From a virus (lineage: Duplodnaviria; Heunggongvirae; Uroviricota; Caudoviricetes), in the IMG/VR virus record IMGVR_UViG_3300042885_000900: DNA of 64,000 nt; one strand, 5' to 3'. The notes under the pieces were generated by a model. It worked only from the letters and a program-made list of their open reading frames with translations. It searched no databases and had not been told where the DNA came from. Every line of letters starts with the position of its first letter. Position 1 is the stretch's first letter. Shown in pieces: positions 14,925-24,210 of the stretch. The position numbers and the translations under genes are program-made.

Positions 14925-15764
14925 TTAAGTTGTTCCATTTTTTATTTCACACAAAACTTTCTCTAATCTTCGTTTTTCTATATCACAATATTCTTTAGAT
15001 ATTTCAGACCCAATATAACTTCTTTCAATTAATATACACATTTTTGATGTTGTACCGCTACCCATAAATGGGTCATAAATAATATCACCCTCATTTGACC
15101 AAGACTCTAAATGTTTTTTCACTAACTCTTCAGGAAATATCGCCGGATGTTCAAATGCCATTTTATCATTAGTAGAATTTCCACCCCCAACATAAAAATC
15201 CCATATATTATAATCTGGTACTCTATCTTTAACAAAATAATCATTTTCATTAAATTCACCATCTTTATTTCTTGAGAATTTCTTTTTTCTATAAGTTCTT
15301 TTATCATCACATTTATTACTTCTATCTCTTAACGCTATATTTGTTGTTGTCGGTTTACCTTTTGAAAATACAAACATATATTCAAACATTTGTTGGTATC
15401 TAGCACCAGCATTTGGTGGTGGATTTAATTTTCGGTATACCATAGTATCGTGAATATTAAATCCAATTTCTTTAAAAAACAACGCCTGTCTAAATGAGGT
15501 ACCAGTCTCCGACCCATTTTTAACAGCATCCGAAACAACCCAAACAACAATACCACCTTTTTGAGTAACCCTAAAAAGTTCTTTAGCTATATCCTCAAAA
15601 GGAAATGAGTACCCATTATATTCATCTTTATTTTTACCGACATTTTTATTGTAAGTCCTTAAATCATCGTAAGGTGGTGAAGTAACTGTTAATTTTATAA
15701 AATTATCAGACATTTTTTTCATTGTGTCTAAACAACTTTCGTTATAGGTTTTATTTAATTCCAT
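14925..15764 (-). CDS. Beta-class N4-cytosine/N6-adenine DNA methyltransferase
   Basis: Catalytic TSPPY near N-terminus; HPA.FP; DPFMGSGTT near C-terminus. Confidence 0.9.
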   Translation of the reverse strand: MELNKTYNESCLDTMKKMSDNFIKLTVTSPPYDDLRTYNKNVGKNKDEYNGYSFPFEDIAKELFRVTQKGGIVVWVVSDAVKNGSETGTSFRQALFFKEIGFNIHDTMVYRKLNPPPNAGARYQQMFEYMFVFSKGKPTTTNIALRDRSNKCDDKRTYRKKKFSRNKDGEFNENDYFVKDRVPDYNIWDFYVGGGNSTNDKMAFEHPAIFPEELVKKHLESWSNEGDIIYDPFMGSGTTSKMCILIERSYIGSEISKEYCDIEKRRLEKVLCEIKNGTT

Positions 15765-16449
15765 TATTTTTTATTAAATTTAAACTTTTATCATAAATTT
15801 CGTCCCAATTTATACATTCAGATATTGCATCATAAAAATGATTTTGAATTCTATTATTTTTTTCTATTAACATAGCAAGTTCAACTATATCAATATCCAA
15901 ACCTAAATAAGATAAATATTCATTATTTGTATAGTATTTTATTTCAACATTATTTTTAATTTTAATTTTGCTACCACAAGCGTTAACCATACCAACACAT
16001 ACATCCACAACATATTTTTTTCCACACTTATTTGGATTTAAATTATCCGGTAATAAATTAAAAAATTCCTTGAATGTTTCATTTAACAAGCAATCAGACA
16101 TACATTCTAATGTTTTAGATTCCGATGTTGAATTAAAACTTGCGTTATTACCTTTTTGTTGACATAGAGAAATTTCTAATACATCCTTATTTTCATTATA
16201 ATTAACCGCCATTATATCAAGTTTTTTTAAATCTTGAGGTAATTTAATTAAAGTTCGTCTTTTTTGATTTTCAATTATTAAATCTTCTCGGATAATCGCT
16301 TTTATAGTATCTTTAGATGTCTTACTAAAATAACTTGAGTATTTTTTTTTTACCTCATTACGTAATTGTTCACCATTTAAATTTGATAAATCCATTGACA
16401 TTAATATTTCTAATATAATACTTGGGTCAGCTCCTTTTTTTGTTGTCAT
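15751..16449 (-). CDS. Putative PD-(D/E)XK type II restriction endonuclease-like protein
   Basis: LDIMAV...ISLCQQKGNNASFNS resembles D...QxK plus N-rich segment; overlaps MTase start; probable start MTTKK at 16449. Confidence 0.4.
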   Translation of the reverse strand: MTTKKGADPSIILEILMSMDLSNLNGEQLRNEVKKKYSSYFSKTSKDTIKAIIREDLIIENQKRRTLIKLPQDLKKLDIMAVNYNENKDVLEISLCQQKGNNASFNSTSESKTLECMSDCLLNETFKEFFNLLPDNLNPNKCGKKYVVDVCVGMVNACGSKIKIKNNVEIKYYTNNEYLSYLGLDIDIVELAMLIEKNNRIQNHFYDAISECINWDEIYDKSLNLIKNNGIK

Positions 16450-16493
16450 TTTATTAATTATATAATTTTTTAAAAAGATAATTAAAAAAAGAA

Positions 16494-16513
16494 TACCCAT
16501 CAAGAGATGGGTA
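16494..16513 (-). terminator. Intrinsic terminator after sbcC-like gene
   Basis: tacccatc-aaga-gatgggta with U-tract on - strand. Confidence 0.75.
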
Positions 16514-16517
16514 CTTT

Positions 16518-18887
16518 TTATTGAGAAACATAACTAATATTTTCTTCTTTTTTAATCCTCACCACATTGTCCGCCCAATTCGTTACCAGTGGATTGTGTG
16601 TGATGACGAATATCTTCTCAAAATACTCTTTAATCTTGGTAAAGAACTCCGATACCATCTCCAAGTTATCGTTGGATATCTTCCCGAATACTTCATCAAA
16701 CACCACAACATTGGCTCTTGGTAATGAACATATCTTACTCAACACCGCTCTCAACGCTAATGAAGCAATTGACCTTTCATATCCTGAACCGGATGACATT
16801 GGTTTCTCAACTTGAGTATTGTTATCAATCATTAAAAAATCAACCTCATTCTTGTCGTTAATTCTAACCTCTAATCTGAAGTGACAACTATCTTCCAACA
16901 ACCTTTGAAGTTCACTATTAATAAGTGGCATCATCGTTTTCATTATAAATTTGGTTACCCCATTTTTACCAAATATTTCCAAATATATTTTATAAATTCG
17001 TTCTCTCTCGGCTTCTTCACCAATTTTCCTAATTGTTTCCAAGTTAGATGTTATATTGGTTATAAGATTGGTTATTGTAAATTTATTGTTAGAGATACTG
17101 GTTTCTATAGTTTTTTTCTCACCTTCAAGTTCATCTATTCTAATTCCGGCTTTGATTAACAATCCATCGGTTTTATTATTTTCAATAACCTTATCCTGAA
17201 CTTCGGTATATCTTTCCAATTTGGTTTTCAACGCCTCAATCATTAACTGGAATCTCTCAACACTTAATTCATATTTTTCTTTAATAAGTTTGTTTTTTTC
17301 ATACTCATCAAATTCTTTTTTAAGATTAACAAAACCGAGTTCTTTGCTGGTTAAATCACGCATTAACCCCTCTAATTCCCCTTTGTGTGTGATAAACCCC
17401 GCAAGCTCTCCAATTTTTGCGTTGGTAATTGCTGCGTTCATAAGTTCAATACCACAGTGTTCACATTTGATTCCACCATCAACAGAACTTTTAAGTTCCT
17501 CAATGTTTTTAATCTTTGCGTTGTTGTCGGCTTGTTTGGTAATTAAATCTTTAATCTCTTGTTTTACCTCATCGTGTTTATCCTCGTGGTAAAATTCGGA
17601 TGGTTCAACAACTTTAACCCCATCTCTATCAGAAACGGATTTAGATTTTTGTGTCTCCAACCCGCTAATTTCTTCCTGAACCTTATCCGGAGATACCATT
17701 GTTAATTCCTTATCAATGTTGTGTTTGGAATTTAATAACCCATCGCGATACTGTTGACCTTTAAGAATCCTTTCTTTAGTATCACCCAATTGACCATCCA
17801 ATGTAAGATTAGTTTCCGTTAGATTATCAATTGTGTCTTGACTGGTTTGGTTATCCGTTTTAAGTTGTTCTGAGTTATAAATGTTTGATAACATTCCTTT
17901 GGAAAATTCACTATAAATTTCTTTGGCAGCTTCTTCCTTACGCTTAAGAAAATCTAACCCCATAAATCTTGAAAGAACCTGACCCCTCGCTGTTGGTTTG
18001 GCATCAATTAGTTCTTCCAAGTTAGTGGCAGTTGTTAGGATGGTCATTAAGAAGTCCTCTTTAGTTCCGATAGACGTTTTGATAAACGCCTCGGTCTCTC
18101 TTCGTTGTTCTCCGGTGAAGTTCTGCAAACTACCATCAGACAATCTTTTATAAAAGTCCAACTCGGTCTTAACCGTCCATTCGTTTTTCTTTGATAACTT
18201 TCTCTCAATATTTCTCAATATGATATACTCCTCACCATCAATTGTAATTTCTCCTTTTACAGCAACTTTATTTCTTTCGGTGAATCTATTAAATATCTCC
18301 TCGGCTTTGGATGTCTTGGTGGTCTCATTAAAGAATAAGAACATAAGTAAATCTACCGTAAGAACCGTCTTACCTCCAAAGTTAGGTGGGTTTGATTCCA
18401 CAACCGTAATCCCATCACACTTCTCAAAATCTATCTTCTGATTCTCACCATAGGATAAAAAGTTTGAGAATTCAATATTTTTGATATACCATCTTTTAAA
18501 TGGTGATGCGTCGGTTTGGTCCTGCAACAATTTGTTATCCACAATACTATTAAGCTGGTAGATATCATCGTAGTGTTCCATATTCCCTTTTGACTCCAAG
18601 AATGAACGAACTAACTCTAATTGATAGTTCTCATCCAAAATGTTAAAGGAGATGTCTACGGTATGCGTGGTGTCGTCAGCAACCTTTGTTTTTGTTATTA
18701 CATTAACATTGGTTGTGTTATACTTCTTTTGAAAGTAATGACGAACACTCTTTATTTTTTCTTGTGTAAAATTTTCTACATAATCCTCCCACACAATCTG
18801 TAGGTAAGGATTATCAAAGTTTGTGATATCTAAATCTTTTATCATTATTGTGTAATTAAATTCTATTGCAGGATTAAATAAATCCAT
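16518..18887 (-). CDS. SbcC/Rad50/gp46-like SMC ATPase with ~130-aa N-terminal extension
   Basis: IEFSNFLSYG, Walker A variant NPPNFGGKT, coiled coils, zinc hook CEHC, signature variant SSGSGYE, Walker B VVFDE, H-loop ITH. Confidence 0.88.
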   Translation of the reverse strand: MDLFNPAIEFNYTIMIKDLDITNFDNPYLQIVWEDYVENFTQEKIKSVRHYFQKKYNTTNVNVITKTKVADDTTHTVDISFNILDENYQLELVRSFLESKGNMEHYDDIYQLNSIVDNKLLQDQTDASPFKRWYIKNIEFSNFLSYGENQKIDFEKCDGITVVESNPPNFGGKTVLTVDLLMFLFFNETTKTSKAEEIFNRFTERNKVAVKGEITIDGEEYIILRNIERKLSKKNEWTVKTELDFYKRLSDGSLQNFTGEQRRETEAFIKTSIGTKEDFLMTILTTATNLEELIDAKPTARGQVLSRFMGLDFLKRKEEAAKEIYSEFSKGMLSNIYNSEQLKTDNQTSQDTIDNLTETNLTLDGQLGDTKERILKGQQYRDGLLNSKHNIDKELTMVSPDKVQEEISGLETQKSKSVSDRDGVKVVEPSEFYHEDKHDEVKQEIKDLITKQADNNAKIKNIEELKSSVDGGIKCEHCGIELMNAAITNAKIGELAGFITHKGELEGLMRDLTSKELGFVNLKKEFDEYEKNKLIKEKYELSVERFQLMIEALKTKLERYTEVQDKVIENNKTDGLLIKAGIRIDELEGEKKTIETSISNNKFTITNLITNITSNLETIRKIGEEAERERIYKIYLEIFGKNGVTKFIMKTMMPLINSELQRLLEDSCHFRLEVRINDKNEVDFLMIDNNTQVEKPMSSGSGYERSIASLALRAVLSKICSLPRANVVVFDEVFGKISNDNLEMVSEFFTKIKEYFEKIFVITHNPLVTNWADNVVRIKKEENISYVSQ

Positions 18888-18892
18888 ATTTT

Positions 18893-19408
18893 TTAGTTCA
18901 CTTCTTCAACCTCTTCTTGAATGGCGTCTCCACCGTCTCTCCTATCTTGAGCTTCCAACACATTGTCTAAATTCCAACCATCATAAGCCGTTAATTTCAC
19001 ACAACCACCTTCCATCCAATAGTATTCCGACATCCATTCATCCCATTTGGAATCAACTAACTTAATGAAGTTCTCGTCATTACCTCTATCTCGGTATCGT
19101 TTGATGAACTCCTCTTTTCTATCACTATCCGGATAAACCAAATAGAAGAAAATACAATTATCCAATAAAGCGTCTCTAACTTCTTTATGTGAAGACACAA
19201 AGATGTATTTATATTTACCAATATTATCTTTGATATGGGTAATGTAGTTCTGTGGAAACTCTGGATTTCTAACCTTTTCACCACTCTCATTAACAACCCA
19301 GCTAAAACCACTTGAATCGGAATCCAAAGTGGTTTTAGGGTTGTTTATATGATAAGTTGTTTTTCCTACTCCAGGAAATGCGGATACTATTTTAGTTCTC
19401 AACTTCAA
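18893..19408 (-). CDS. Small P-loop NTPase (nucleotide-kinase-like)
   Basis: SAFPGVGKTT Walker A, LDSDSS. Confidence 0.75.
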   Translation of the reverse strand: MKLRTKIVSAFPGVGKTTYHINNPKTTLDSDSSGFSWVVNESGEKVRNPEFPQNYITHIKDNIGKYKYIFVSSHKEVRDALLDNCIFFYLVYPDSDRKEEFIKRYRDRGNDENFIKLVDSKWDEWMSEYYWMEGGCVKLTAYDGWNLDNVLEAQDRRDGGDAIQEEVEEVN

Positions 19409-19655
19409 CTTCAGGTGTTACTACCTCAGCCTCAACGATGTTAATATCATTTACATCACTTACAACCTCGGCGTTTATATCCATTGTTTCACCATTCTCA
19501 TTTTGGTATTGAGCTTTCATTGTTTCCATTTGTTTCTCAAACATTTCGGTATACTCCGCTTGAGCTTTCTTTCTTAATCCTCTAAGAGAGTTGTTTCTTG
19601 TTGTAACTCTTGTTTTGTGAGCTTTTGCTCCACCTCGTAATTTTGACTTTGGCAT
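19392..19655 (-). CDS. Hypothetical protein with basic N-terminus
   Basis: Tiled ORF. Confidence 0.7.
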   Translation of the reverse strand: MPKSKLRGGAKAHKTRVTTRNNSLRGLRKKAQAEYTEMFEKQMETMKAQYQNENGETMDINAEVVSDVNDINIVEAEVVTPEVEVEN

Positions 19656-19667
19656 GATTGTTTTTAT

Positions 19668-20174
19668 TTAATTGTTATTTATTTCTTTTTCTATTTCTTC
19701 TAAAGTTATTTCCGGTTCATTCTCAACTTGTTCTCTTAATTCTTGAGTTAACATATCAGTAATTCGTTGATATGGATTTTCATTTGACACCTCCATTTTA
19801 GACCGTTCTATTTTTTCATCTGTCGAATCATCTCTATACATTTCCAACCATTCAGGTCTCTCTTGGACTTGAATACTATTCACCTTTTCAATCATTTTTT
19901 GAACTTCTGTTTTACTACCTTGTAACATTTTAGATAGTTTAACTTTTCTCTCAATTGATTTAAATCGTGAGTAATAATCCCCCGTAATTTCATCAAAATT
20001 TATATCTATCTCATTTTGGTCCAAATATTCAACAATATTCATAACCTCAACACATTCATCACTGAGACCCATATCAATTATTAATTGAAAAAAATCCACA
20101 CATTTGATTACTTTTCTAGTTTGAGTTTTTTCTTTCAAATACTTAATTACAAAATCACCTAATTTACTTTCCAT
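19668..20174 (-). CDS. Hypothetical protein (168 aa)
   Basis: Tiled ORF. Confidence 0.72.
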   Translation of the reverse strand: MESKLGDFVIKYLKEKTQTRKVIKCVDFFQLIIDMGLSDECVEVMNIVEYLDQNEIDINFDEITGDYYSRFKSIERKVKLSKMLQGSKTEVQKMIEKVNSIQVQERPEWLEMYRDDSTDEKIERSKMEVSNENPYQRITDMLTQELREQVENEPEITLEEIEKEINNN

Positions 20175-20177
20175 ATT

Positions 20178-20525
20178 TTAATTTTTCACTGGTCTGTTCT
20201 CCTCAAACCATTCAACAATAGAATTTATTATCCACACAGCCCCTGATGATAATAGACCATCAAAGAACCAAGACACATTTTCGGAAATACCGAATAATTG
20301 GTGTATTGGAGAGTATAATAAAAAACTCAATAAAAATCCACTCCAGGTGCTAAAACACATTGGACAGGTTAATATACCCGATATAAAACGTCCTAATCCG
20401 TTAAAAGGTGTGTATTGGTTATTTCCCCATTTTTTAAAGAAATCTCTCAATCCCTGAAAGATTGACCCGTATACCATAATGTTCATAAGCCCATAACTTA
20501 AAATGAACCAAACTAATATTTCCAT
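20178..20525 (-). CDS. DUF1360-like membrane protein
   Basis: Three hydrophobic helices and LTCPMCFSTW motif. Confidence 0.65.
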   Translation of the reverse strand: MEILVWFILSYGLMNIMVYGSIFQGLRDFFKKWGNNQYTPFNGLGRFISGILTCPMCFSTWSGFLLSFLLYSPIHQLFGISENVSWFFDGLLSSGAVWIINSIVEWFEENRPVKN

Positions 20526-20526
20526 A

Positions 20527-21240
20527 TTATAAATTTTCTGTTAAGTTAGAACCTTTCATATAAACCGCACCACGCTCTATATTACTTGATTCCAATTGTT
20601 TATTTATTTTTTCAAGCTCTTCTATTCTTGTGTTCTTTAAAGATAGTTCTTTTCTTAATTTCTGTAAAGTTTCTTGGATAAGTTTTAATTTATCATTTCC
20701 GGAATCAACCTCAACTATAACTTCTTTAATAACCTCTACCACCTTCTCCACCTCAATAATTCTATCCACCGGAACTTCCTTAATAACCTCCACTATCTTC
20801 TCAATAATAATTGGTTCAGGTTCGTCCCTTTTTTCCTCTATAATTGGGACGGGATTGTCGTAAATATATACTATTTTTTCGACAGGAACTTCCACTTTTA
20901 TCTCCCTAATGACTTCTCTATCAACATATTTGATAATTTCTATTTCCGTGGGTGGGCTCGGAACTTCTTTAATGATTTCCACTTCCTTAATGACCTCAAC
21001 TTCTTTGATAACTTCAACAGGAACTTCTACCCGTATTTCACGGATTACCTCAATTTCTACCTGTTTTTCCTCAACAATACTCGTTTTTCCCGAATCATCA
21101 CCAAGCAGACCATATTTAGTTGTGTTAAATCCACCAGTAAAACATTTTACGATGAATTTATCAATGTCCTCAATATCGTTTAATTTACAATACTCATTGA
21201 CACTAGTTAATTGACTATTTGTTAACACGATTTGCTTCAC
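20527..21240 (-). CDS. Hypothetical protein with IKEV/VEV low-complexity repeats and C-terminal coiled coil
   Basis: Repeated (V/I)E(V/I)IKEV units. Confidence 0.75.
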   Translation of the reverse strand: MKQIVLTNSQLTSVNEYCKLNDIEDIDKFIVKCFTGGFNTTKYGLLGDDSGKTSIVEEKQVEIEVIREIRVEVPVEVIKEVEVIKEVEIIKEVPSPPTEIEIIKYVDREVIREIKVEVPVEKIVYIYDNPVPIIEEKRDEPEPIIIEKIVEVIKEVPVDRIIEVEKVVEVIKEVIVEVDSGNDKLKLIQETLQKLRKELSLKNTRIEELEKINKQLESSNIERGAVYMKGSNLTENL

Positions 21241-21318
21241 GCTCTTTGTCTTCTTGTTCTATTTTTTTAAGTAATTCTTCCCACTCCTCATCGGAGTATT
21301 TATGTCTAAGATTTCCCA

Positions 21319-21939
21319 TTATATTATTTTATCTCGTTTAATTATATTCTCAATAGCCCATAAAGGTTGTAAATTAGTATAATGACATAATTTTTTTAAT
21401 TCATCATCATTTTTAGCGGATGATAATGGAATAATATGGTCAATATGCCAACCAAATAATCCGTGATTCTCCCAACACATACCATCTTTAAATTGTTTTT
21501 CCAAATAACTTTTTAATTCTGAAGGTGAACAACCAATTAAATCAAAGGTGGATTCTCTATTACTACCCAAAATTTTATTTGTCTTACTTCTATACAACAT
21601 TTTTAATTTTAAGATAGGGTCATCTTTTTTTCGTTGAACCATTTTTGAGTTAATAAAATCTCTATTCCTTTCAACATAATCTTTTTTATATTGTTCAACT
21701 TTATCTTTATTATTATTCCCCCAAATTTTAACTCTATCAATAATTATTTTTTGATTTTCAATGTAATATTCTTTAGATTTTTCTAATATTTTTTCTTTAT
21801 TATCAATATAATATTGTTTTTTATATTCTTTAACACAAACTTTACAATTGTCCTGTAAACCATCCTTAGAACTTTTATTTTTATTAAAATCAAATAATGA
21901 TTTATCTACCGAACATTTTTTACAAATTTTCTTTTTCAA
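21319..21939 (-). CDS. HNH homing endonuclease with N-terminal CxxC...CxxC finger (TTG start)
   Basis: CKKC...NCKVC; WHIDHIIPLS...HYTNLQPLWAIEN. Confidence 0.87.
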   Translation of the reverse strand: MKKKICKKCSVDKSLFDFNKNKSSKDGLQDNCKVCVKEYKKQYYIDNKEKILEKSKEYYIENQKIIIDRVKIWGNNNKDKVEQYKKDYVERNRDFINSKMVQRKKDDPILKLKMLYRSKTNKILGSNRESTFDLIGCSPSELKSYLEKQFKDGMCWENHGLFGWHIDHIIPLSSAKNDDELKKLCHYTNLQPLWAIENIIKRDKII

Positions 21940-22078
21940 ATTTATAATCTTCTAATAATTTATTAACGAGTGACGACAAGTTAATATGAAGACCCCTGTA
22001 ATATTCCAACAATTCAGGTTTAATAGCTATCGATATACTCTGTTTTTTTTCTTCATTATTTTTTTTGTTTCTTCCCAT
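21920..22078 (-). CDS. 52-aa ribbon-helix-helix / CcdA-like protein (not in ORF track)
   Basis: MGRNKKNNEEKKQSISIAIKPELLEYYRGLHINLSSLVNKLLEDYKFEKENL; overlaps HNH start by 20 nt; TATTTATA at 22083-22090. Confidence 0.72.
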   Translation of the reverse strand: MGRNKKNNEEKKQSISIAIKPELLEYYRGLHINLSSLVNKLLEDYKFEKENL

Positions 22079-22082
22079 ATTA

Positions 22083-22090
22083 TATAAATA
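22083..22090 (-). promoter_or_regulatory. Putative late-promoter motif TATTTATA
   Basis: 4 nt from ATG 22078. Confidence 0.6.
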
Positions 22091-22130
22091 TCATAGTTTT
22101 TAGTAAAGTTGTTATTTTTAACAATTTTAT

Positions 22131-22913
22131 TTATAAATTTACCAATTTTTCAGTTCCATTTATTATATCATCAAATGATTTCATTTTAAACGATAAGAAA
22201 GGTTTTGGATTGTGTAAATCAACAAACGAGTATTCATCAGTTTCTAAATTATATATTCCAAATCCGTGTTTAGTAATACTTTCCCCATAGTTCTGAGCAA
22301 TCAAACTCCCTATCATTACACCTCTTTTACCATTTGGGATATTAAAGCTTGCTCTCTTATGAACATCTCCACATAGAACGAGGTCAAGACCGTTAAATTT
22401 TTCAACATCATAAGCGTGTGAACCAAAGTCAAACCCTAAATCTGTAGTTAATCCGGCAACAGGGTCGTGAAATAACCCAATCTTAAATCCAACCGCAGTA
22501 TCAACTTCCGGTGGAATATTACCTTGAAATTGTGAATATACGCACCAAGACACATTCTCATCCTCATAAATCCCTCTATTCTTGTAATAAACAATATTTG
22601 GATTATTTAAATTATCAACAATAGGTGTTATACTATCCAACCTTTCATCATTCTTTAAATTTGCGTCGTGATTACCAGGAATTAAAACTATTTTAGCGAT
22701 TTTAGAACATTCTGTTAATACCCAAGAAGACATTTCTATCGCCTCAGGGGTTAATTGATTTTTTGAATGTAATAAATCCCCCGTAAAGACAATTCTATCC
22801 GGAGCAATCTCTCTGAATTGTTCCAACATATTATTTAAGATACCACGATATAAATCGTGGTCTTTAAATAATCGTATATGTAAGTCACTAAAGTGAACTA
22901 ATTTTTTTATCAT
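22131..22913 (-). CDS. SbcD/Mre11/gp47-like metallophosphoesterase nuclease (short, ~260 aa)
   Basis: SDLH, GDLLH, GNHD, H and GDVH motifs; probable start MIKK at 22913. Confidence 0.88.
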   Translation of the reverse strand: MIKKLVHFSDLHIRLFKDHDLYRGILNNMLEQFREIAPDRIVFTGDLLHSKNQLTPEAIEMSSWVLTECSKIAKIVLIPGNHDANLKNDERLDSITPIVDNLNNPNIVYYKNRGIYEDENVSWCVYSQFQGNIPPEVDTAVGFKIGLFHDPVAGLTTDLGFDFGSHAYDVEKFNGLDLVLCGDVHKRASFNIPNGKRGVMIGSLIAQNYGESITKHGFGIYNLETDEYSFVDLHNPKPFLSFKMKSFDDIINGTEKLVNL

Positions 22914-22914
22914 A

Positions 22915-23100
22915 TTATTTTTCAATTTTCCAATTTAATAATCCCCATACTAAAATTAAAGCAGGTATTCCTACCCACCATAACCATTCATCATGACATT
23001 TAACACCATTAATTGACATAATGATATATGTTATTGTTGGTATCCACCACAATGACGCAGTGCAAGGAGCACAAACACCTTCTTTTTTAATTAATTTCAT
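22915..23100 (-). CDS. Small two-TM membrane protein
   Basis: Trp-rich hydrophobic helices. Confidence 0.6.
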   Translation of the reverse strand: MKLIKKEGVCAPCTASLWWIPTITYIIMSINGVKCHDEWLWWVGIPALILVWGLLNWKIEK

Positions 23101-23315
23101 TATTTATCAAATAATTTAAAATCCTCATTGACGTGACCACAATCATCACAACGATAAGTGGGGAATGGAACAATCGTATCTTCCTGACTTCCTGTTAATA
23201 ATTTGTTTACTTTTTTTATCATAACAACTTCCTTGAAGTAGATGCTTCCGCATTCTTCACACTCAAGTGTTGGTTGTTTTTTTAAATCAATCTTTGGTTG
23301 CAATAAATCATCCAT
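23100..23315 (-). CDS. Small zinc-ribbon protein
   Basis: CEEC and CDDC pairs. Confidence 0.72.
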   Translation of the reverse strand: MDDLLQPKIDLKKQPTLECEECGSIYFKEVVMIKKVNKLLTGSQEDTIVPFPTYRCDDCGHVNEDFKLFDK

Positions 23316-23343
23316 ATACTTTTTTTATAAATTTAGTTGTTAA

Positions 23344-24210
23344 TTACTTACTAGTCAAATATTTTTTCATATCCATATCCAAGATAGTTTGTTGAACTTC
23401 TTTTGGAATCCTAAACTCCTCAAATGTTCCATCGTCTTTAACCAAAACAATTATACACCCATAAACTTTAATGTTTTCATATTTAGACCCTTTCAACATC
23501 TTCAACAACAATTTACAATAAAATGGTAATTGTGTTGAGTAGTGACCCAAAGCAGTGTCATCCAATTTTTCAAAAGGTGAAAACATTTTTTTGGTAAAAT
23601 ATCCCGCTTCAAAGTTTTTTGGTTTGTTTGTTTTATAATCGGTACAGACAATCCCTACTTCAGTTTTATCTTTATTCTCAATTAACCACATTTTATCCGG
23701 AGCTCCTGTATAACCATATTCATTATCACCAAGAATTAACTCGGTATCTAATAATATTGCACCACGCTCTTTCATAGTTTCTAAAAAGTTGGTTCCTGCG
23801 GACACCATAGAATCACTGCGTAATATTTGTTCAAAATTACATTCAAATTCAGGTTGTCTAACTTCTTTATCTAACCCAAACATCTCTAATGATTTTTTTT
23901 CTAATAAAAAGTGAGTTCTACTCCCCACATTTATAGAATAGTCAGCCGCAGCCTTCCATTCATCTAATAGTTGTTGTTGAACTTCAGGGTCTCCCTTGGC
24001 TTTCTTTAGTGAGATACCTTCGGTATCAAACTCCTCATAGAAGTATTTCATTACCTTACTAACGGAGGGATAATCATTTCTAACAACACCCGTCTCATCT
24101 TTCATATAATAAGTGTGGGTGTCTTCAACAAAGGTTAAATCAAGTTCCTCTCTTCGTTTATCCAACAATCCTCTAATCTCTTTCGCAACCTCGTTTAAAT
24201 CTATTTTCAT
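23344..24210 (-). CDS. PD-(D/E)XK (RecB/Cas4-like) exonuclease
   Basis: PSVS, GSRTH, TE...GAPD...DYKT, HYSTQL..Y; probable start MKIDL at 24210. Confidence 0.82.
   Translation of the reverse strand: MKIDLNEVAKEIRGLLDKRREELDLTFVEDTHTYYMKDETGVVRNDYPSVSKVMKYFYEEFDTEGISLKKAKGDPEVQQQLLDEWKAAADYSINVGSRTHFLLEKKSLEMFGLDKEVRQPEFECNFEQILRSDSMVSAGTNFLETMKERGAILLDTELILGDNEYGYTGAPDKMWLIENKDKTEVGIVCTDYKTNKPKNFEAGYFTKKMFSPFEKLDDTALGHYSTQLPFYCKLLLKMLKGSKYENIKVYGCIIVLVKDDGTFEEFRIPKEVQQTILDMDMKKYLTSK

Follow-up and report, generated by a model that had tools for sequence, protein, structure and literature searches.

A two-chain SbcCD (Mre11-Rad50) system in a phage-like genome, with the chain boundary inside a predicted capping-like domain

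Mre11-Rad50 (SbcCD) is a universal sensor of DNA breaks, and its mechanism depends on the tethering of a nuclease dimer to the ATPase via a flexible linker and a helix-loop-helix. The 64,000-nt viral sequence IMGVR_UViG_3300042885_000900 (hereafter the window, to which all coordinates refer) encodes a truncated Mre11/SbcD nuclease and, at a distance from it, a Rad50/SbcC ATPase with an N-terminal extension. This locus raises the question of where the parts missing from the nuclease have gone, and whether the two proteins could still act as one complex. Our analysis indicates that they probably form a working two-chain SbcCD complex with a shifted chain boundary, which most likely arose by fission of a fused sbcD-sbcC gene; it is an evolutionary variant of known parts and not a new kind of system. 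The genes around sbcD and sbcC all lie on the minus strand of a phage-like region with a G+C content of ~30%. A preliminary description of the sequence had noted an SbcD-like protein of about 260 amino acids (aa), an SbcC-like protein with about 130 extra N-terminal residues and a separation of about 3.2 kb, and the gene calls gave 260 aa, ~132 residues and 3,243 nt, respectively, with seven same-strand open reading frames (ORFs) in the gap.

22131..22913, minus strand: sbcD, truncated Mre11/SbcD nuclease, 260 aa from the ATG
22209..22913, minus strand: SbcD nuclease core, aa 5-239, with motifs DLH, GDL, GNHD, LFHD and GDVH
22134..22208, minus strand: SbcD tail, aa 240-264 numbered from the TTG (strand FLSFK, short helix FDDII, strand KLVN)
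16518..18887, minus strand: sbcC, Rad50/SbcC ATPase with N-terminal extension, 789 aa
18687..18809, minus strand: extension aa 27-67, predicted strand-helix-strand (YLQIVWED ... NVNVITK), from the AlphaFold2 model, conservation and predicted contacts with the SbcD tail
18633..18686, minus strand: extension aa 68-85, predicted disordered linker
18513..18632, minus strand: extension aa 86-125, predicted helix-loop-helix, from the AlphaFold2 helices and alignment to the pre-ATPase helices of fused proteins

Collinearity with fused SbcD-SbcC proteins

SbcD matched Pfam Metallophos (E-value 3.9e-13) and phrog_100, and it combined phosphoesterase motifs I-V (DxH, GD, GNH[DE], H, GDxH) with a Mre11 fold, which identifies it as a Mre11/SbcD nuclease (COG0420). 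The motif residues were invariant across 21 relatives. An alternative TTG start would enlarge the ORF to 22131-22925 and add four residues; the ATG at codon 5 (22913) is the one used by most relatives. The gene ends in a conserved stop codon, and neither the sequence nor the model of SbcD, which ends at aa 264, contained a C-terminal helix-loop-helix. SbcC matched Pfam SbcC_Walker_B and phrog_77 (E-value 2.7e-39). Its start codon lies 5 nt past the stop codon of the preceding gene, and its ATPase begins at W133 (WYIKNIEFSNF), which leaves the ~132 extra residues ahead of it.

The top matches of SbcD among reference phages (tblastn) were single ORFs that carry both nuclease and ATPase. These fused relatives included proteins of Microcystis phage Mel-JY01 (1066 aa), megaphage LR756501 (1202 aa) and Tenacibaculum phage pT24 (gp019, 1310 aa), and a further one was gp288 of Sphingomonas phage PAU (1301 aa). 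SbcD aa 5-248 aligned with aa 1-250 of the LR756501 protein (E-value 7e-39), and SbcC aa 29-414 aligned with aa 272-657 of the same protein (BLASTP, E-value 4e-26). Canonical phage SbcDs were far more distant, with 21-23% identity and E-values of 1e-4 to 5e-2. A profile built from 62 fused proteins ran ~70 positions past the end of SbcD, and these positions aligned to the SbcC extension. Against this profile (HMMER), the SbcDs of the clade with separate genes (the split clade) ended at positions 250-254 and the extended SbcCs mostly started at 253-258, that of the window starting at 243; the break can therefore be placed in a single short loop, at about positions 250-256, and no segment has been lost. 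When the extension was compared with the middle segment of the fused proteins using hhalign, a probability of 98.6% and an E-value of 7.8e-16 were obtained. These results support homology of the SbcC extension to the inter-domain segment that joins nuclease and ATPase in single-chain SbcD-SbcC proteins. Read end to end, the fused proteins and the window share the order nuclease, capping-like segment, helix-loop-helix, short linker and Rad50 ATPase with a CxxC hook. A second scan of IMG/VR, with fused proteins as the query, returned one fused ORF in each of 80 loci, the complete ones being ~1,000-1,240 aa long.

The split point was compared across related phages in 75 viral loci that hold both sbcD and sbcC, and the same boundary was found. 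SbcD ORFs were ~259-291 aa long and their alignment to the SbcD of the window ended at residue 263-264 throughout; one of these loci (L081) has an sbcD that is broken further. SbcC was 770-813 aa long and carried the extension in nearly all of the loci with a complete gene. The order was always sbcD then sbcC on one strand, 816-3,663 nt (median, 1,383 nt) separated the genes, and the two were neither fused nor adjacent in any locus; as in the window, where a stop codon follows SbcD and SbcC has a separate start, nuclease and ATPase were never on one polypeptide. SbcD identity within the split clade was as low as ~40%. SbcC relatives number in the thousands, and the best 120 were at least 90% identical, 774-790 aa long (788-789 aa for more than 100 of them) and located on contigs of up to 464 kb. 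Among 1.84 billion representative proteins the extension was N-terminal in every true match, and the full-length matches that bear it were 771-921 aa long with identities as low as 29%. Two candidates were set aside during these comparisons: P0225 (2,086 aa), a repeat protein with a spurious match to the extension, and a 254-aa Metallophos protein beside P0241 in locus L006, which was only 18% identical to SbcD and differed in motif spacing.

The ratio of non-synonymous to synonymous substitution rates (dN/dS) was ~0.10 for the extension, like that of the coiled coil, and 0.005-0.025 for the ATPase lobes; the extension is under purifying selection. Residues W33, D35, N39 and Y56 were invariant in 26 relatives with identities as low as 30%, and Q89 in the helix-loop-helix was also invariant. 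The linker at aa 68-85 varied among relatives in both length and sequence. SbcC aa 1-25 (MDLFNP..EFNYTIMIKD; 18813-18887) are conserved among the nearer half of the clade only; distant members lack them. They align weakly to the strand of the fused profile that is also matched by the SbcD tail, and they may be the relic of a small duplication at the break, a reading without statistical support: in a MAFFT alignment with the fused proteins, SbcD tail and SbcC head came to occupy the same columns, and HMMER carried the SbcC match of the window back to profile position 243, but the pairwise score equaled the mean of shuffled sequences (24 vs. 23.9), and neither peptide alone matched the fused profile (E-values of 0.11 and 0.19).

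Predicted assembly of the two chains and ATPase motifs

The predicted structure of SbcD was that of a Mre11 protein, its residues 3-260 spanning residues 7-299 of Thermotoga maritima Mre11. In the latter, the core (phosphodiesterase plus capping domain) comprises residues 7-342 and the helix-loop-helix residues 343-385 (PMC3258140). Since the model reaches only the equivalent of residue 299 of this core, SbcD has the start of a capping domain without its end, and a complete capping domain is absent from the nuclease chain. The final ~25 residues (strand, short helix, strand) aligned structurally into the capping domain of solved Mre11/SbcD proteins. They were also the lowest-confidence part of the lone SbcD model, with a predicted local distance difference test (pLDDT) score of 61-67. 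As modeled, the SbcD tail is the first part of a capping-like domain and a predicted docking surface.

The AlphaFold2 model of SbcC residues 1-135 (pLDDT 71.5) consisted of a strand (29-35), a helix (42-56), a second strand (61-67), a disordered stretch (68-85; pLDDT below 50 at residues 71-81) and two helices (86-100 and 103-125). Approximately eight residues separate this helix-loop-helix from the first ATPase strand at W133. Taken alone, the model of the extension gave no significant structural match, either to Mre11 or to an unrelated fold. Based on the models, aa 27-67 appear to be the second part of the capping-like domain. When SbcD and the extension were predicted as a complex, the interaction prediction score from aligned errors (ipSAE) was 0.77, versus 0.40 for the best control; 58 of 80 solved complexes reached that mark, as did 2 of 110 mismatched pairs. 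Three complex runs had at least 51% of their contacts in common and a partner pLDDT of at least 57. The predicted interface joined SbcD residues 234-260 (numbered from the ATG) with extension residues 23-35 (strand to strand) and 39-56 (helix). Contacts at both cut ends are what would be expected if the cap is rebuilt from two chains. Mre11 capping domains have been solved as single chains, so the high complex score may reflect recall of that fold, and it is read here as resemblance and not as binding; assembly of the two chains in trans is a prediction only.

In the arrangement we propose, the first chain (SbcD, 260 aa) would supply the phosphoesterase domain together with the initial strands of the capping-like domain, whose remaining parts come with the second chain; the latter (SbcC, 789 aa) would contribute the remaining strand-helix-strand, a flexible linker, the putative Rad50-binding helix-loop-helix, ~8 further residues and the ATPase with its coiled coil and CxxC hook. 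The helix-loop-helix would thereby be joined in cis to the ATPase, as it is in the fused proteins, and strand complementation between the chains, restoring the capping-like domain, would hold them together. The preliminary description had recognized the extension as an alpha/beta segment followed by a helix-loop-helix, and the AlphaFold2 model agrees. Its proposal that the C-terminal modules of SbcD sit on the N-terminus of SbcC is borne out by the homology to the fused middle segment, the layout and the predicted docking, and it has to be amended in that the capping-like domain is cut in two: SbcD does not stop right after the phosphoesterase core, as had been thought, and appears to keep the first part of the cap. 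Nor would the outcome be a new complex topology, since the predicted assembly rebuilds the same domain order and only the non-covalent joint is shifted.

The SbcD tail was 92-96% identical, and the extension alike, in loci where the SbcD core was only 67-71% identical. In a comparison with three loci whose sbcC is 90-94% identical to that of the window (L014, L030 and L011), sbcD (22140-22920) was a mosaic, with nucleotide identity of 0.8-0.93 over ~120 nt at its start and over the final ~130 nt, which encode the tail, and of 0.55-0.75 across the ~540 nt between. It looks as though the nuclease core was replaced by recombination while the tail predicted to dock stayed with its SbcC partner. 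Co-variation of tail and extension over 67 loci (Spearman 0.49) was discarded as evidence, being no stronger than with other regions and confounded by relatedness.

The ATPase itself has the following parts.

17898..18491, minus strand: ATPase N-lobe, aa 133-330, with Walker A and the Q-loop position
18366-18392, minus strand: Walker A NPPNFGGKT, aa 166-174 (GGKT at 171-174)
18021-18038, minus strand: Q-loop position, LTTATN, without Gln
17028..17897, minus strand: putative coiled-coil region, ~290 residues between the ATPase lobes
17454-17465, minus strand: CxxC zinc hook CEHC, aa 475-478
16521..17027, minus strand: ATPase C-lobe (Pfam SbcC_Walker_B)
16776-16793, minus strand: signature SGSGYE, aa 699-704
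16692-16709, minus strand: Walker B VVVFDE, aa 727-732
16674-16685, minus strand: D-loop position, GKIS, aa 735-738
16593-16607, minus strand: H-loop VITHN (ITHN at aa 762-765)

Atypical motifs had been remarked on at the outset (NPPNFGGKT, SGSGYE and GKIS); all three were confirmed where they had been described, and two of the changes in the ATPase proved to be specific to the split clade when 69 of its proteins were compared with 61 fused proteins. The Walker A Lys and the Walker B Asp-Glu were invariant in both sets. The H-loop His was invariant in the split clade and present in 96% of the fused proteins, and of the hook cysteines both were invariant in the split clade, versus an invariant first and a 93% conserved second Cys in the fused proteins. 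The window SbcC has all of these Rad50/SbcC residues and lacks the Q-loop Gln and the D-loop Asp. At the Q-loop position, at least 81% of the split-clade proteins had Ala or Gly, whereas 91% of the fused proteins had Gln; the D-loop position was Ser or Ala, whereas 95% of the fused proteins had Asp. The loss of these two residues is thus specific to the split clade. The signature was SG[YF]E in split-clade proteins and SGME in fused ones, with Ser, Gly and Glu invariant; relative to the consensus S-G-G-[EQ], the second Gly is replaced by Tyr or Phe in the split clade (S-G-Y-E in the window) and by Met in the fused proteins. Judging from the loss of the Gln and the Asp, the ATP cycle of the split clade probably differs in detail.

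Origin of the split and alternative explanations

A tree of the nuclease domain showed the split clade to be monophyletic (Shimodaira-Hasegawa-like approximate likelihood ratio test, 99) among at least three fused lineages, and pT24 gp019 and PAU gp288 formed a deep fused lineage. These last two carry the annotations 'metallo-phosphoesterase' (L087:4986-8918) and 'gp288' (L172:1504-3813, clipped by the locus end), and both are fused SbcD-SbcC proteins. In 80 of 84 fused loci, and also in the window, there is a primase gene upstream. The sequence between sbcD and sbcC comprises the following.

18888..22130, minus strand: intervening cassette, 3,243 nt, seven ORFs (ORF calls and family matches)
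21920-22078, minus strand: ribbon-helix-helix (RHH) protein (CcdA/RHH-like), 52 aa
21319-21939, minus strand: HNH/EndoVII-like endonuclease (phrog_1035, E-value 1.3e-20)
20527-21240, minus strand: repeat/coiled-coil protein, 237 aa (EVIKEV-type repeats, coiled-coil tail)
20178-20525, minus strand: DUF1360-like membrane protein, 115 aa
19668-20174, minus strand: 168-aa ORF
19392-19655, minus strand: 87-aa ORF
18893-19408, minus strand: phrog_4182 protein, 171 aa

The gap held a homolog of the repeat protein in 73 of the 75 loci and a homolog of the DUF1360 protein in 74, and neither was found in the flanks of fused loci. The HNH endonuclease was considered as the cause of the split and was ruled out: HNH and RHH together were present in the gap of only one related locus of the 75 (L026), which makes the HNH gene a late passenger. 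No nuclease domain was found in the core insert formed by the repeat and DUF1360 proteins.

We infer the following order of events. A single fused sbcD-sbcC gene downstream of a primase gene would have been cut in a surface loop on the arrival of a two-gene cassette encoding the repeat/coiled-coil and DUF1360 membrane proteins, and the cut would then have become fixed in a large clade of freshwater jumbo-phage-like genomes. More genes would have gathered in the gap later (in the window, the RHH and HNH genes, the 168-aa ORF, the 87-aa ORF and the gene of the 171-aa protein), and the same clade would have dropped the Q-loop Gln and the D-loop Asp of an ATPase that presumably remains active. Because the covalent junction of helix-loop-helix and ATPase is common to fused and split forms, fusion followed by fission at a new site needs the fewest steps, with the rooting being weak. 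Movement of the modules to the ATPase chain, as proposed in the preliminary description, probably did not start from a canonical pair; the closest relatives are fused single chains, and fusion followed by fission is the simpler account.

Several observations weigh against this reading of the locus. In the tree the split clade lies in a polytomy with the fused lineages, which leaves nested and sister positions unsettled, and the canonical outgroups sit on long branches, with an outgroup branch support of only 74. In the complex models the partner pLDDT was only 57-60, the 0.40 score came from a control in which the extension was kept and SbcD swapped, so that the extension is somewhat sticky, and the predicted strand pairing is parallel, which is hard to square with the short loop in the fused proteins. 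The extension had no sequence match to the C-terminal regions of Mre11 in Pfam or the PDB, and its identification as the remainder of the cap plus a helix-loop-helix therefore rests on position, secondary structure and predicted docking. Finally, the loss of the Q-loop Gln and D-loop Asp puts normal ATPase activity in doubt.

The uncertain rooting would suit the same architecture with another history, in which either a canonical adjacent operon received the cassette within sbcD and the 3′ end of sbcD was joined to sbcC by read-through, or the split form is ancestral and became fused by in-frame deletion of the cassette. We consider this unlikely: a fused ancestor is the cheapest, given the junction common to both forms, there is one split clade but at least three deep fused lineages, and the fused loci retain primase-sbcDC synteny without a trace of the cassette. 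Further independent fissions of the fused gene have also been seen, in LR756508 and in a published SbcD-like locus described below.

The modest partner confidence, the 0.40 control and the lack of significant structural or sequence matches to canonical Mre11 C-terminal domains would be in keeping with the extension being an accessory domain of SbcC (e.g., DNA-binding or regulatory) that does not assemble with SbcD, which would then have an incomplete cap or bind in some other way. That explanation is improbable in view of the collinearity of the extension with the inter-domain segment of the fused proteins, a complex score far above all controls with an interface exactly at the two cut ends, the low confidence of the SbcD tail when modeled alone, as expected of half a domain, and the high identity of the tail together with the extension in loci with a diverged SbcD core. 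It is extremely improbable that an intron, translational bypass or a split intein brings the halves back into one chain after transcription or translation, or that the locus is a decaying pseudogene, even though relatives host mobile elements such as the intein C-terminal piece in the sbcC of L012, given that no intron family (Rfam) was found in 16000-23500, that the gap is filled with conserved protein-coding genes, that SbcD has a conserved stop codon and SbcC starts just past the stop codon of the gene before it, that intein halves would need far more than the 13-16 residues beyond the last aligned position of SbcD and the ~25 ahead of the first one of SbcC, stretches that lack a Cys/Ser at the junction and an HN[CST] motif, and that dN/dS is ~0.1 or lower in a family with thousands of intact relatives.

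Fission of a fused gene remains our preferred explanation, and it leads to a further idea that we hold to be quite doubtful, namely that sbcD, sbcC and the two cassette genes form a four-gene module. The repeat and DUF1360 proteins might then work with the split complex, e.g., as a membrane tether or assembly gate, and rebuilding of the cap in trans might be a switch for nuclease recruitment coupled to an ATPase without the Q-loop Gln and D-loop Asp. Searches of Pfam, PHROGs and Atlas for a function of the two proteins returned only DUF1360 and viral hypothetical proteins. In the repeat/coiled-coil protein, ~50 aa at the N-terminus form a conserved domain, and the EVIKEV-type repeat is variable.

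Relation to known systems and neighboring features

Natural Mre11/Rad50 fusions have been reported as Mimivirus R555 and as abundant aquatic phage-like metagenome homologs with primase neighbors (Yoshida, Claverie and Ogata 2011, Virol J 8:427, PMC3175470). The same authors noted that the Mre11 C-terminus lies ~28 Å from the Rad50 N-terminus, such that a linker of 9-12 residues would be enough and joining is sterically feasible; the words "fission" and "split" do not occur in that paper. Our sequence comparisons used phage and IMG/VR members of the fused group, with Mimivirus R555 considered by description only, and the window was 31-42% identical to them in the nuclease and 22-30% in the ATPase. 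The primase upstream and the covalent attachment of the helix-loop-helix to the ATPase are shared. Unlike the fused proteins, the window has two polypeptides, cut in the loop of the capping-like domain and separated in the split clade by 0.8-3.7 kb of other genes, and it has replaced the Q-loop Gln and the D-loop Asp and reads SG[YF]E in place of SGME.

Canonical complexes (Mre11-Rad50, SbcCD and T4 gp47-gp46) resemble the window in having two chains and an ABC (ATP-binding cassette) ATPase with coiled coil and zinc hook, and by analogy the presumed job would be alike, i.e., the processing of DNA ends and hairpins for recombination-dependent replication. For this comparison we used the T. maritima (3QG5/3THO) and Escherichia coli (6S6V) structures and the proteins of Enterococcus phage phiSHEF16, Vibrio phage Ceto (D12/D13) and Salmonella phage 7t3. 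Canonical SbcDs are 327-346 aa long and carry a complete capping domain and a helix-loop-helix on the nuclease chain, both of which the window SbcD lacks, and the two are only 21-23% identical. Their sbcD and sbcC genes are adjacent or overlapping, whereas those of the window are far apart. The anchor between the chains also differs: in canonical complexes it is the contact of the helix-loop-helix with the coiled coil, whereas in the window this contact would be in cis and the joint is predicted to lie inside the capping-like domain.

Homing endonucleases are known to fracture genes, as in the Aeh1 NrdA-a/MobE/NrdA-b gene in pieces (cited in PMC2677866 and PMC3045599) and in an SbcD-like locus of the Lake Gatun Global Ocean Sampling data that is fractured by a Vsr-like ORF (Dassa et al. 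2009, Nucleic Acids Res 37:2560, PMC2677866). Such loci share with the window an essential gene of DNA metabolism that is cut by inserted DNA and whose pieces must reassemble non-covalently. The published SbcD-like locus is cut after motif V, whereas the window is cut in the loop of the capping domain; the cut of the window is old and fixed in the whole clade, unlike those of endonuclease-fractured loci; and the core insert consists of a repeat protein and a DUF1360 membrane protein and not of a free-standing endonuclease, with or without split-intein halves.

Other breaks were seen among the relatives. A ~305-aa Zn-finger protein with a C-terminal DUF559/TnsA-like (Vsr-type) endonuclease domain is inserted after nuclease motif V at L081:10004-11830 and L088:5950-10175, between GDIHKRQ and GSxIQQNxGE of sbcD, in a split-clade phage (L081) and in the fused gene of LR756508; this insertion matches the SbcD-like locus of Dassa et al. 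(2009). In L012 (12712-16584), sbcC is broken near the P-loop into a 199-aa piece, a 336-aa ORF of no known family and a 739-aa piece that opens with an intein C-terminal segment (Pfam Intein_splicing, E-value 3.2e-7, below the curated cut-off), and it may be a split-intein fractured gene. The sbcD-sbcC gene, fused or split, is visibly prone to being cut.

Fused Mre11/Rad50 proteins and an endonuclease-fractured SbcD have thus been published, and a fixed fission inside the capping-like domain is absent from the literature found. Phrase searches, which did not cover subscription journals, yielded no description of this re-partition, and a survey of jumbo phages mentions SbcCD only as nearly universal (PMC7824862). 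The window adds a third version of one machine, in which the joint is predicted to lie inside the capping-like domain, to the canonical version with its joint between helix-loop-helix and coiled coil and to the fused version with no joint. The abundance and long persistence of the split version suggest that assembly of the capping domain from two chains is tolerated and that the helix-loop-helix is able to act in cis. For structural biology, the split version is a natural construct in which the contributions of the tether and the cap could be examined. For annotation, a short SbcD and a long SbcC parted by unrelated genes can be taken as the halves of a single system. Biochemical work on the two canonical ATPase residues lost throughout the clade would be worthwhile.

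The RHH and HNH pair of the window (21319-22078) behaves like a recent mobile insertion, and a promoter-like sequence, TATTTATATAAT, lies directly upstream of the RHH start. The only hit to Rfam, RAGATH-25 (16780-16823, minus strand; 28.6 bits against a gathering threshold of 49, E-value 8e-4), was sub-threshold; it falls inside sbcC over the signature codons and is probably due to chance. The sequence 3′ of sbcC includes the following features.

16492..16515, minus strand: terminator-like hairpin, just 3′ of sbcC
15751-16503: 250-aa ORF downstream of sbcC
14925-15764: DNA methyltransferase gene, adjoining the 250-aa ORF

The 250-aa ORF had no homolog in 80 related loci and the methyltransferase had one in 12 of the 80, and the pair looks like an insertion specific to the window. 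A methyltransferase is also found 3′ of the fused gene in Mel-JY01.

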